A program made the translations under genes and the position numbers. From assembly GCA_019058445.1 (NCBI GenBank), contig JAHPZA010000004.1, forward strand, positions 354,184 to 418,183: a DNA stretch of 64,000 nt, given 5' to 3'. The notes under the pieces were generated by a model that saw nothing but the letters and a program-made list of their open reading frames with translations, was not told where the DNA came from and did not search any database. This DNA comes from Promethearchaeota archaeon (GTDB lineage: Archaea > Asgardarchaeota > Lokiarchaeia > Sigyniarchaeales > SOKP01). Within the stretch, counting starts at the first letter, position 1. Each line of letters begins with the position of its first letter. Below are positions 29,456 to 38,338 of the stretch, one piece after another.

Positions 29456-31059
29456 CTATTGATTGTGATTTAGGTTTACACCATACCCAATCAATCTATA
29501 TCTTCTATTGATAATTCTAGAAATAGCAAATATAAAATTTTCAGCAGGACAGATTGGGGGATTTAATTTAATAACAACACTATCTTTTAATAATTTGGTA
29601 ACCACTCCTCCAGTTTTTTCGGTACCCACAACTAACAATAATTTTTCATTATGTTTAAGCGCATGGACTTTAATCATATTTTCTGAACCTATTACCCTGT
29701 CTAATAGGTGGACTTTCAATTCAATTTCTGAAAGGATTTCCGGTAAATTTCCCGGTTTTCCAACTAAATGTCCAATTAAGGAGTCTCCCTTAGTAAGCGC
29801 AGGATCTAATTTTGTGCCAAGACCTATAAGACCCCCAGGTTTAGCTTCTTCTAAAAGATTATTACCTTGACTAATGCTTACAACAGTAGTTTTTATGGGA
29901 ATATATTCATCCTTTATATGCAATCCTGGTCGAATTTCAATTTGATCACCTACTTTAATTTCTCCCTTTAATACTGATCCACCAATTACCCCTCCTTTAA
30001 GTTCCTCAATATCTTTCCCGGGTCTATTGATATCAAATGAACGGGCGATCAAGAATTGGAATTCCTCTTCTTTACTCAGCTCTGGAGAAGGTATTATCAG
30101 TTCAAATGCTTCAACCACAGCATCGATATTTGATCCAAAAACAGCAGAGGTGGGAATAATAGGTGCATTTTCGGCTACAGTCCCCCTTACAAATTTTCTA
30201 ATTTGATTGTAATTCTCCAAAACTCGTTCTCTTGAAACAGCATCAATTTTATTTTGGATAATAATAATGTTTTTTATTCCAGCTATATTTAAAGCTGCTA
30301 AATGCTCTCTTGTTTGAGGTTGGGGACAAATTTCATCTGCGGCAATCAATAGACACGCCCCATCCATTAGCGAAGCGCCACTTAGCATAGTTGCCATCAA
30401 TATTTCATGCCCAGGAGCATCTACAAAAGAAATATTTCTCTTAAATTCCAATTGCCCTTTACAATCGGGACAGGAAAATCTGGGTTCACCCTTTTTTCTT
30501 TCTTTTTCGGCCATATATGCAGTTAAATAAGAATCACAAGAAGGGCAATAGAGAATAGTAGCATTTGAATAACCCAATTTTATTGAGATTCCCCGTTCTT
30601 GTTCTTCTGAGTGCCTATCAGTCCAGTCCCCTGTTAAAGATTGAACCAACGTGGTTTTTATGGGAAATGCCGAAACGACATTATCATACCATGGTCAACA
30701 TGACCGACTAGACCGATATTGCATTCAGCTTGCCTTTTTATAAGGTCCTTAAGATTAGTGGCCTCCTTAGAGGGTTTTCTTTTTACTGATTTTTCCTCTT
30801 TCGTGATTGCATCTGCTTTTTTTGGCTCTTTTTTTTGAGTTTTGTCTTTACCTTCTTTATGTTCTAATTCTTTATGTAATTTTTTAGCGCTATTAATGTA
30901 TTTTTCTGCGGTAGCCTTTCCGATACCTTTAATTTTTAACTTTACTAAATCTTCGGGCTTCAATGAAGCTAATTTTTGAACCGTATCTATTCCAGCCGCT
31001 TTCATTCTTTCAGCAGTTGCTTTTCCAATGCCACTAACATTTTCCAAGCGATCTTCCAT
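29456..31059 (-). CDS. eif2g: Translation initiation factor aIF2-gamma with N-terminal (HhH)2 extension; spliced CDS = complement join(30687..31059, 29456..30657), 524 aa
   Basis: Exon 1 ends QAECNIGLVGHVDHG; exon 2 continues KTTLVQSLTGDWTDRHSEEQERGISIKLGY, DAPGHE, QPQTREH, QNKID, RSFDINRPG, RLIGYG; 373+1202=1575 nt in frame. Confidence 0.9.
30658..30686 (-). other. 29-nt BHB/BHL-type mRNA intron in the aIF2-gamma P-loop
   Basis: Central helix AUGG/CCAU, bulges UA^U and AA^A, intron hairpin GA(U)AAUGUCG-UUU-CGGCAUUUC; removal gives GGU AAA ACC ACG (GKTT). Confidence 0.85.
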
Positions 31060-31191
31060 AATATTTTATTATACGTTATTATAAATAATTTTTATTGAAA
31101 ACCATATTGTCAAAATCTATCTATATTCAAAATGGAAAAGAATTCAAAGAAAAATATATAAAATTTACCTTCAAAATCATACTATAATATT

Positions 31192-35983: not shown

Positions 35984-37324
35984 GTGAAAGAGAAAAAAGA
36001 TTTGCAATGTAAATATGAGAATTGTACAAATAGGAAGATAGATTACAACGAAAAAAATACTAATTCTAATCTATTGTTTTTGGATATCTTCGAAGATAAG
36101 AAGACTTTAGAAGACTATGTTATTGAACAAATTCAGTATTATTCTAGAACAGGTGAAAGATTATATCAACAAGAAGACATTACGAAAGCACTTAAATTTA
36201 GAATGGCTGATTTCAAGCCTAAAGTAATGAATATAATTAGAAGTATATTTTACACAAAAAAAGAGGATATTATTCAGACTATCTACGATATGACTTTTGG
36301 GAAAGTTAGATTTGCAATTCAGAAATTACGACATTGGGCTTCGCAAAATGGAATGGAAGTATTAACGACATCTCAAGAATGGTTTGATATGGTACTTAAT
36401 AGAGATGAATATCTCAAAACTGGACCTAAAAAGACAACAGAATTTTTAAAAGTTTTAATAAAGTGTGCTCAAGGCCATATTTATGTTAAATATGCAAGGG
36501 AAATTTCAAAGGGATGTAAACATTGTCAACCGTATAGGGTCGGTATTGCATATACTCGTACTTTAGAAGAATACTATGAATATATAAAGGATGTCTGCTC
36601 AGTAAGAGGTTATGAATTAATAACTACGAAAAAAGAGATTATATTAAAATTAAAGAAATCCAGACAGATTAAAGATCGTACTAGTTTTGAAGGTCGTGAT
36701 GAAAATGTTGGGATAGAAGTGAGACATAAAGGATGTAATCATGAATTTAAAATTCGTTTTAAAGCTGTTTTGTATAATCCTGGATGTAAATTCTGTATTT
36801 CACACAAAAAACAAAAAATTGTACAATTAATAATAGAAGAGATGTTAGGAGAAAAATTTGAACCTGAGGTACAAATTCATAGAGTATTTAATAAAGTGAA
36901 GCATAAAGAAGTAAATGATTTCGATTTTAGAGTCAAATTGGATATGTTTAAAAAGGTAGGAATTAGAGATAAAAATGGAAATTTTATTAAATTGGCTATT
37001 GAAAGACATGGCCAACAACATGAGCCCACACTAAAAGGATTCAAAATCTATTTAAAAATAGCTAAACATCCTGATATAAAAAGAGGAAGTAAAATATATA
37101 AAACATTATGGAAGAAGTGGATGAAACAGTTAAACACTGATAAAAAAGAAATAGAGATATTTCAAAAATATAATGAAAATGGTTATTATTTAATTGTAGT
37201 GCATCATAAGATTAAAAATCATCAAGTAGAGCAATTTATTATTAACGAATTGATGAGACAAACAGGCAATAAAATTAGCTATATAGGTATTCAATGGCAA
37301 ACCTTATTTAATAAGATAAAGTAA
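35984..37324 (+). CDS. Zn-ribbon plus PD-(D/E)xK/Vsr-like (EDxHD-type) endonuclease, free-standing homing-endonuclease-like
   Basis: C..GH...GCKHC and H..C.H...GCKFC modules; KLDMF..., LAIERHGQQH, D.KE.E....NGYYLIVV. Confidence 0.65.
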   Translation: MKEKKDLQCKYENCTNRKIDYNEKNTNSNLLFLDIFEDKKTLEDYVIEQIQYYSRTGERLYQQEDITKALKFRMADFKPKVMNIIRSIFYTKKEDIIQTIYDMTFGKVRFAIQKLRHWASQNGMEVLTTSQEWFDMVLNRDEYLKTGPKKTTEFLKVLIKCAQGHIYVKYAREISKGCKHCQPYRVGIAYTRTLEEYYEYIKDVCSVRGYELITTKKEIILKLKKSRQIKDRTSFEGRDENVGIEVRHKGCNHEFKIRFKAVLYNPGCKFCISHKKQKIVQLIIEEMLGEKFEPEVQIHRVFNKVKHKEVNDFDFRVKLDMFKKVGIRDKNGNFIKLAIERHGQQHEPTLKGFKIYLKIAKHPDIKRGSKIYKTLWKKWMKQLNTDKKEIEIFQKYNENGYYLIVVHHKIKNHQVEQFIINELMRQTGNKISYIGIQWQTLFNKIK

Positions 37325-37338
37325 AAAATTTTTAAAAA
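37323..37338 (-). terminator. Oligo-T terminator for the 5S precursor
   Basis: T5 and T6 runs on the minus strand directly after the processing stem. Confidence 0.45.
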
Positions 37339-37357
37339 TAGTCATATAACTTAACGT

Positions 37358-37538
37358 TTCCGGGTTCCCGAACCATCCATAAATCAGATGATTTTTCGGA
37401 TGGGACCGGGTACTATCCTCGATAGCCATGACCGTAAGCAAACTTATGCTTGCGTTGCAATACACAACGCAATTTACAGTTTGATAGTTCCCACAGATTG
37501 CAACTGCAGTACTATTATCAACGCGTATCGAGTTTAAC
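37358..37538 (-). rRNA. rrf: 5S rRNA gene, circularly permuted and intron-containing; mature order = 37437-37395, 37364-37358, 37538-37474
   Basis: Helix I UUACGGU/ACUGUAA; helix II GCUAUCGAG/CUCGAUA(C)GC; helix III ACCCGG/CCGG(AA)GU; loop C UCCCAUCCGAAC; helix V UUGAUA/UAUCAA; loop E AGUA/GAA; helix IV CUGCAG/CUGUGG; total 115 nt. Confidence 0.88.
37365..37394 (-). other. 30-nt BHL intron in 5S rRNA loop C
   Basis: Central helix UCCG/CGGG, bulges AA^A and AA^C, intron stem AAUCAUCUG/UGGAUGGUU. Confidence 0.85.
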
Positions 37539-37599
37539 CTTCGGCGTTATGCGAAATGCTTTGTTATATGATTATATTATAAAAAAGAAAAATTATGAA

Positions 37600-37717: not shown

Positions 37718-38338
37718 ATGCCTAACAAAATTGTAATCTTATTGAAAAGAATTCTAAAATTTTGGTTTATCGCCCTTATCGTAGCTATTCTTATAGTATA
37801 TCTTTACTATCCGAATTATGCAATATGGATGACTGTGATTAGCATAATTCTGATAGTTTTATCATTTATCCCCAGTCTCTATTTTCGTTTTAGATTAGTG
37901 AGGTTTATGAAAGAATATTATAGAATAGATGATAAAACAATTGCAAGATATTTTAAGAAACCACTGAGAAAAATACAAAACAAAATGTTTGCGATGTCTC
38001 AAAAGCAAGAAGGTAAAAGTTGGTGGAAAAGGCTTCTCGAAAGACTTCTAAAAAAGGAGGCTGAACCAACATTAAAGCTAGACAAAAAAAAATGGCTTAT
38101 TATTTTCTTTAATAGACAATATATCTTTTACCACATGGAAACTATTGAAAAAATAAAAGAACTCTTTATAAAGGGCTATAACGACAAAGAAATGTTAGAA
38201 GATCTTAAAGAATTTGAGATAAAAAATAGAGATGAGATTAAAGCAATCATTCAGACGCTACTAAAAAACAAAAGAATTAGTGAGAGGACCACGAGTGTTA
38301 AAGAACGTCAGGAAAAAAAGCGTTTTGAAAATTTATAA
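37718..38338 (+). CDS. Hypothetical protein, two N-terminal TMs plus basic cytoplasmic domain
   Basis: Hydropathy of the 206-aa ORF. Confidence 0.7.
   Translation: MPNKIVILLKRILKFWFIALIVAILIVYLYYPNYAIWMTVISIILIVLSFIPSLYFRFRLVRFMKEYYRIDDKTIARYFKKPLRKIQNKMFAMSQKQEGKSWWKRLLERLLKKEAEPTLKLDKKKWLIIFFNRQYIFYHMETIEKIKELFIKGYNDKEMLEDLKEFEIKNRDEIKAIIQTLLKNKRISERTTSVKERQEKKRFENL

Follow-up and report, generated by a model that had tools for sequence, protein, structure and literature searches.

BHB introns are established in 16S and 23S rRNA, in tRNA and in cbf5 mRNA, as is the EndA-dependent repair of permuted SRP RNA and permuted tRNA genes (PMC4496867, PMC2738675, PMC4731332, PMC3978253). In Asgard archaea EndA is reported to be of the (alpha-beta)2 form with an L1 insert, a form tied to broad specificity and the cleavage of relaxed motifs (Kaneta et al., PMC5829648), and a census of Asgard tRNA introns makes no mention of rRNA or mRNA (bioRxiv 10.64898/2026.10.13.758758). 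As for 5S rRNA, recent reviews and papers have the archaeal molecule, unlike 16S and 23S, bypassing EndA-dependent processing, a 2026 paper states that circularisation does not belong to its processing (PMC12918454), and searches of the published literature found no intron in the 5S rRNA of any organism and no permuted archaeal 5S.

The locus described here lies in a window of 64,000 nt, the whole stretch of DNA analysed, from a Promethearchaeota archaeon (Lokiarchaeia; Sigyniarchaeales; SOKP01; assembly GCA_019058445.1, contig JAHPZA010000004.1, positions 354,184-418,183). Thirty nucleotides in loop C of its sole, circularly permuted 5S gene are, we think it likely, a spliced mini-intron of the relaxed BHB (BHL) kind, which would place a known mechanism, BHB splicing, in an RNA for which no published intron was found.

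A permuted 5S rRNA gene

The 5S gene is circularly permuted, lies on the minus strand and forms a stand-alone transcription unit at 37560-37337, with the order TATA-like box, leader of about 20 nt, 3' two-thirds of 5S, 36-nt linker, 5' third of 5S and a trailer with T-runs. Its parts are listed below, where type A denotes the layout in which CCCGGAA meets GUUAAAC at the permutation junction and ^, here and throughout, marks a predicted cut.

37571-37586, minus: AT-rich TATA-like box, putative promoter, from sequence (a TATAAT-like hexamer ends at 37571)
37539-37560, minus: leader; its pairing with the trailer covaries among 49 distinct type A genes
37474-37538, minus: 3' part of 5S, encoded first; collinear with the canonical 5S of the sister family and conserved in relatives
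37438-37473, minus: linker joining the native 3' and 5' ends, from sequence and comparison with relatives
37395-37440, minus: exon 1, the 5' part of 5S, from sequence and alignment with canonical 5S
37365-37394, minus: candidate 30-nt mini-intron, exactly missing from 46 of the family's 71 type A genes
37358-37364, minus: exon 2, the 7-nt micro-exon CCCGGAA, from sequence, relatives and terminal-motif pairing
37323-37357, minus: trailer, whose first nucleotide completes the bulge AA^A, from sequence and fold

The TATA-like box, putatively about 25 nt upstream of the leader, would serve as promoter. The leader holds an outer-helix strand UAACG (37549-37545), a central-helix strand CCGA (37544-37541) and the bulge AG^G (37540-37538), with a cut predicted between 37539 and 37538, while CGUUA in the trailer (37356-37352) base-pairs with the leader and the T-runs at 37338-37334 and 37328-37323 are a likely terminator. 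The 3' part of 5S begins with GUUAAAC and includes the 3' strand of loop B/helix II, helices V and IV, loops E and D and, at its end, the helix I 3' strand; exon 1 comprises the helix I 5' strand, loop A, helix II, the helix III 5' strand and loop C through CCGAA. The linker folds as an 8-bp hairpin in this genome and in three relatives of the same genus, most members of the family closing helix I with a bare UUCG-type tetraloop instead, and a helix I closed in this way would fit a 5S that is never opened, that is, a circular one.

As encoded, the gene gives no Rfam 5S match at E<=10, either in the window or in the whole 4.6-Mb, 92.6%-complete genome, because it is permuted and interrupted. 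Rfam scans at gathering and permissive thresholds likewise returned no 5S, just a chance sRNA match, and BLAST found no second 5S copy in the genome. Unpermuted and spliced in silico, the product is an RNA of 118 nt that folds as a three-way junction and is collinear with the canonical 5S of the sister family, at 51-62% identity.

Two plus-strand ORFs flank the unit, one of 446 aa (35984-37324) that stops some 15 nt away from the 5S trailer and adjoins the 5S in the same-genus genome G007 too, the other of 206 aa (37718-38338). Neither contains a Pfam family, and an earlier suggestion, made from the sequence alone, that a homing-type nuclease might be a neighbour gained no support. ARAGORN detected zero tRNAs in the 64-kb window, and in the whole 4.6 Mb it gave just 23 candidates, many of which contain odd introns; SSU rRNA was not found in the assembly with Rfam.

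The insert in loop C

Between ...CCCAUCCGAA and CCCGGAA (37364-37358), in loop C, stand 30 nt (37394-37365, minus). The sequence-only reading had described them as an interruption folded into a 9-bp stem, AA^A, UCCG/CGGG and AA^C at an internal loop; its coordinates and letters prove exact, and all its pairings are present. UCCG (37400-37397) pairs with CGGG (37370-37367) to form the central helix, and the 5' bulge AAA occupies 37396-37394. The inner stem, 9 bp with three G-U pairs and the loop AUUUA, joins 37393-37385 to 37379-37371, and the 3' AAC (37366-37364) lies opposite UCCCA (37405-37401), beyond which helix III pairs CCGG (37409-37406) with CCGG (37363-37360). The candidate intron thus consists of one bulge nucleotide, the 9-bp hairpin with its 5-nt loop, CGGG as the strand of the central helix, and AA. 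Its 3' bulge faces five unpaired nucleotides, which makes the motif one of relaxed (BHL) form: UCCCA intervenes between the central helix and helix III, the outer helix, one pair of which covaries, and a non-contiguous outer helix is tolerated solely by broad-specificity enzymes.

Deletion of the 30 nt in silico gives the exact loop-C sequence of intron-less relatives, and the claim that cleavage by rule restores loop C is borne out by 46 insert-free relatives with that same product; a GAA repeat lets the splice junction shift over as many as 3 nt with the same product. BLAST of this insert, and of a second one in the aIF2-gamma gene (see below), against the whole genome revealed no further copies, and the insert is therefore not a repeat family.

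The minimum free energy fold of the window's own allele is a different, long hairpin (-20.8 vs -15.1 kcal/mol for the BHL fold, a preference of 5.7 kcal/mol), in which CCAUCCG of the exon pairs with UGGAUGG of the intron; CGGG could alternatively pair with CCCG or UCCC of exon 1, and the single-sequence z-score is only -1.9. As a selected structure the long hairpin was rejected, its pairing across alleles being that expected from shuffles, with no covariation, and it is treated as a competitor fold of the window's allele.

Distribution and covariation among relatives

Within the same order, family f2 has normal 5S genes (Rfam scores of 53-68 bits), and the window's family, f1, yields just weak partial Rfam 5S matches. 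A BLAST survey located the permuted 5S locus in 102 of 135 genomes of f1, and 99 of these loci were extracted and classified. Type A without an insert accounts for 46 of the 99, and type A with an insert of 30-31 nt at the identical loop-C position for 25, spread over four genera (g1, g2, g4 and g21). Among type A genes the site is hence occupied in 25 of 71, the other 46 having the same loop-C sequence unbroken; of the eight genes from the window's own genus, two have the insert and the remaining six read CCCAUCCGAACCCGGAA uninterrupted. Another 22 of the 99 have a type B layout, with the junction within loop C (CCCGGUC meeting CCAUCC), one has a 31-nt insert 4 nt further upstream, four are unresolved, and one, left unclassified by the script, looks like type B. 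Type B genes (carried by L092, L095, L104, L122, L128, L132-L140, L085, L119 and L007) start with CCAUCCGAAC... and end with ...ACCCGGUC, their leader being GCG-CUGG-AA^C and their trailer CCGG-UC^A-CGC; given these start and end positions, the permutation breakpoint varies among genera of one family.

Seventeen distinct alleles of the loop-C insert were aligned (alignment A1). Sixteen are exactly 30 nt long, the overall range being 30-31 nt, and the hairpin is highly divergent; the 3' end, CGGGAA, comprises the sole invariant positions of the intron, namely the central-helix strand and the 3' bulge, and invariance of CGGG and AA is what a BHB core would predict. In the window UCCG/CGGG is flanked by AAA and AAC, the arrangement by which a BHB intron is recognised, and the spacing is identical in all 17 alleles. 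On the structure drawn in the sequence-only reading, 93% of the cells of the alignment are paired, and two-sided changes occur at eight pairs, seven of them among the nine of the inner stem. The covariation score of 0.330, vs 0.185 in shuffles, was reached by none of 500 shuffles and collapses once partners are slid by one to three columns. RNAalifold, given no hint, agrees, returning helix III (CCGG/CCGG), a 5x3 internal loop, the 4-bp UCCG/CGGG helix, a 3-nt bulge and the hairpin with its inner stem. The central helix, whose covariation among relatives had been proposed as a check, is invariant at the loop-C site and has no covariation of its own there, since its exon strand is fixed by loop C; at other 5S sites the corresponding tetranucleotide pairs do covary. 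Loop-C nucleotides that are unpaired in the precursor are as conserved as in insert-free genes.

The micro-exon and the terminal motif

Exon 2 (37364-37358) ends, as had been noted and as the sequence confirms, at the permutation junction after only 7 nt. Its CCGG plays two parts: it is the 3' strand of helix III, within the outer helix of the intron motif, and it is also one strand of the central helix of the terminal motif formed by leader and trailer. This double use, already claimed from the sequence alone, is upheld by the relatives: of the 49 distinct type A genes, 43 have a leader tetranucleotide that pairs at four of four positions with CCGG or CCAG of exon 2, the compensated form CUGG/CCAG among them, and 42 have all three pairs of the terminal motif's adjoining 3-bp outer helix, with many compensated types. 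In the window itself the terminal central helix has three of its four pairs (CCGA against CCGG).

Whether the two reactions follow an order is pure inference. Sequential cutting and joining is favoured because both cuts before ligation would leave a 7-mer held by only 4 bp, an argument silent on which reaction precedes. The 7-nt length of the exon stands, and yet, with pairs of BHB introns separated by 7-8 exon nt known in Thermoproteales 16S rRNA (PMC4496867), the micro-exon is less exceptional than the sequence-only reading implied.

The same architecture at other sites

Eleven genomes of the family carry inserts of 29-30 nt in helix IV/loop D of 5S, at three positions and with several unrelated hairpins (L042, L048, L089, L092, L093, L099, L118, L128, L129, L130 and L136; L042 and L048 bear loop-C inserts as well). 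All 11 can be placed as exact insertions relative to an insert-free relative, and they follow one rule, exon N4 + 2 nt ^ 1 nt + hairpin + N4' + 2 nt ^, with N4 and N4' pairing at all four positions, the exon N4 standing 2 nt upstream of the cut and the intron N4' 2 nt before the 3' end of the intron. The tetranucleotides differ and covary (UUGC/GCGA, UUAC/GUGA, UUGA/UCAG, UUGC/GCAG, CUGC/GCAG and UGUG/UGCG), and the rule is obeyed also by those inserts that allow a single placement. The main loop D site has an uninterrupted outer helix in helix IV, so that its motif is a canonical hBHBh'.

The same design is seen in L091 (genome G097, at about 382+ as oriented), where a 31-nt loop-C insert 4 nt upstream of the usual site reads UCCC-AU^U ... 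GGGA-AA^C, with UCCC/GGGA as its tetranucleotide pair. The hairpin of this insert holds a 17-nt copy of the neighbouring exon (GGAUAAUACCCGGUCCC), a hint that the insert arose through local duplication.

Outside 5S, the gene for aIF2-gamma (29456-31065, minus), of which no second copy was found in the genome, contains an insert of 29 nt (30686-30658) that splits the P-loop codons, between GHVDHG and KTT, and shifts the frame. Its removal restores GHVDHGKTT and one continuous ORF, and its motif, AUGG-UA^U...CCAU-AA^A, is of the same design as the 5S insert. The aIF2-gamma insert, which would not be tolerable in the mRNA, is a candidate EndA-spliced mRNA intron; since the ORF needs it removed, the architecture must here be excised at the RNA level, and it is highly likely, judging from these genes, that the N4/N4' architecture represents a working intron class in this organism.

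Splicing enzymes and a proposed pathway

The assembly encodes RtcB and one gene of the EndA family (G000:C9:770313-770921; L079:1219-1827), which, relative to the M. jannaschii enzyme, has Phe and Ser at the catalytic Tyr and His positions, keeps the Lys, and looks like a structural beta subunit. A catalytic alpha paralogue was not found in the 92.6%-complete assembly by Pfam six-frame, phmmer or tblastn searches, an absence tentatively attributed to incomplete assembly. Two EndA genes are present in 28 of 30 relatives, and in G007, a genome of the same genus that also has the 5S insert, the alpha subunit keeps Tyr, His and Lys and aligns gap-free with the catalytic subunit of Aeropyrum pernix through the crenarchaeal-specific CSL/L1 loop, including its KPR motif.

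From the observed sequence, fold potential, covariation, distribution and enzyme genes we infer cleavage, ligation, the order of the two events and circularity as follows. In the precursor, the last six nucleotides of exon 1 would supply UCCG and AA, and the intron one bulge nucleotide, the 9-bp hairpin, CGGG to pair with UCCG, and AA. Each strand would then carry one 3-nt bulge, with 4 bp between the two; the inner flank would be a firm helix, and helix III, on the outer flank, would stand off by a 5-nt loop. The lineage's heterotetrameric (alpha-beta)2 EndA would cut AA^A and AA^C, and RtcB would ligate ...CAUCCGAA to CCCGG..., remaking a normal loop C of 12 nt. A second EndA/RtcB event on the leader/trailer motif 7 nt downstream would join CCCGGAA to GUUAAAC and so repair the permutation, a terminal cut-and-join that probably yields a circle.

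Alternative explanations

The intron reading is supported by exact presence or absence, a fixed length of 30-31 nt, a covarying inner stem, the invariant CGGGAA and recurrence at other sites, and its chief rival, which we judge improbable, is that the mature 5S keeps the 30 nt, which would then form a small expansion segment lengthening helix III/loop C. Retained inserts are documented in loop C of bacterial 5S (E. coli positions 34-37), where the loop is sterically unobstructed (PMC7812874), and elsewhere in bacterial and haloarchaeal 5S (PMC7812874, PMC7530397), and exon 1 and the window's insert are able to fold together as one long, unbroken hairpin. This hairpin, however, lacks covariation beyond that of shuffles, whereas the BHL inner stem covaries, and the insert lies after CCGAA, unlike those at the known 34-37 site. 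Retention also sits poorly with a length fixed at 30-31 nt and all-or-none occurrence, no graded lengths being seen, and with a CGGG that pairs with UCCG of the core in every allele, described expansion segments being without core complementarity (PMC7812874). Loop-C nucleotides that idle in the precursor are nonetheless conserved as in insert-free genes, and the identical architecture in aIF2-gamma cannot be retained.

Fragmented rRNAs occur in bacteria and organelles. They lend some precedent to another alternative, that the motif is cut and its pieces remain unligated, the 5S being composed of non-covalently held fragments and the permuted gene merely end-trimmed; the tetraloop-closed helix I of most relatives would moreover let a permuted linear RNA fold. 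We regard this as very unlikely: the exon CCCGGAA, held by only 4 bp, would be lost, the products of EndA are natural substrates of RtcB, which is present, and the two permutation breakpoints and several insert sites give the same consensus only when the pieces are joined. It is scarcely credible that the locus is a 5S pseudogene in decay, or a product of misassembly, with a meaningless insert: although Rfam does not recognise it, it is the sole 5S-like locus of its genome, and conservation of the gene, together with covariation in its helices, extends over about 100 genomes from independent assemblies, 25 of them with the insert. Beyond the spliced mini-intron, a broader proposal goes further, namely that the tRNA-splicing machinery alone matures the 5S of this family, through the excision of one or two mini-introns and a terminal cut-and-join that leaves the 5S of the ribosome a covalent circle, and that the inserts of about 30 nt are a single class of EndA-dependent mini-introns propagating in conserved rRNA loops and coding genes; this we put forward tentatively, with slightly more doubt than confidence.

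Significance and relation to known systems

If the splicing of the mini-intron is real, the sole 5S gene of an Asgard archaeon would need two EndA/RtcB reactions within 7 nt to yield a functional RNA, and BHB splicing would extend to the third rRNA. Together with the aIF2-gamma insert, it would suggest that protein-catalysed splicing in this lineage reaches well beyond tRNA, and on the broader proposal protein-spliced mRNA introns would be regular in some of the closest prokaryotic relatives of eukaryotes. A permuted and interrupted gene explains why standard tools report no 5S in such genomes, which bears on the scoring of genome quality, and the locus of about 220 nt offers a compact substrate for the ordering of relaxed and overlapping motifs.

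Among described systems, the hairpin-forming BHB introns of less than 50 nt in Thermoproteales 16S rRNA (Jay & Inskeep 2015, PMC4496867) resemble the candidate in being non-coding, in lying at highly conserved sites of rRNA, in their BHB motif and in their removal by EndA and RtcB, predicted in the candidate's case. They differ in their host, 16S or 23S rather than 5S, and in belonging to Crenarchaeota rather than Asgard archaea; the 5S motif, for its part, is relaxed on the exon-2 side, its companion motif is a permutation junction, and no partner intron bearing a homing endonuclease was seen at 5S. In having one strict and one loosened half, the 5S motif is like the relaxed hBH/HBh' (BHL) tRNA introns cut by (alpha-beta)2 or epsilon2 EndA (PMC3241643, PMC5829648), with which it shares a predicted need for a broad-specificity EndA with the L1/CSL loop and a sporadic pattern of gain and loss (PMC3241643, PMC5829648; bioRxiv 10.64898/2026.10.13.758758), unlike them in that its substrate is no tRNA. 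The permuted SRP RNA of Thermoproteus (Plagens et al. 2015, PMC4731332) and permuted tRNA genes (PMC3978253) likewise have BHB termini beside a functionally important loop, which the tRNA-splicing machinery joins, as proposed for 5S, and they are the setting in which the micro-exon is to be seen; unlike them, the 5S gene has a candidate intron as well, 7 nt away from its junction. The BHB intron of crenarchaeal cbf5 pre-mRNA (PMC2738675), an EndA-type intron outside tRNA and rRNA that has been gained and lost, parallels the aIF2-gamma insert, yet concerns another gene in another lineage and bears on 5S by shared architecture only. The expansion segments of Halococcus morrhuae and Thermoanaerobacterium 5S (PMC7812874, PMC7530397) also add nucleotides to 5S, some of them in loop C, but they stay in the rRNA, are longer, vary in length and lack complementarity to the core, whereas the window's insert combines the geometry of a splice motif and a clean presence or absence among relatives with a fixed length.
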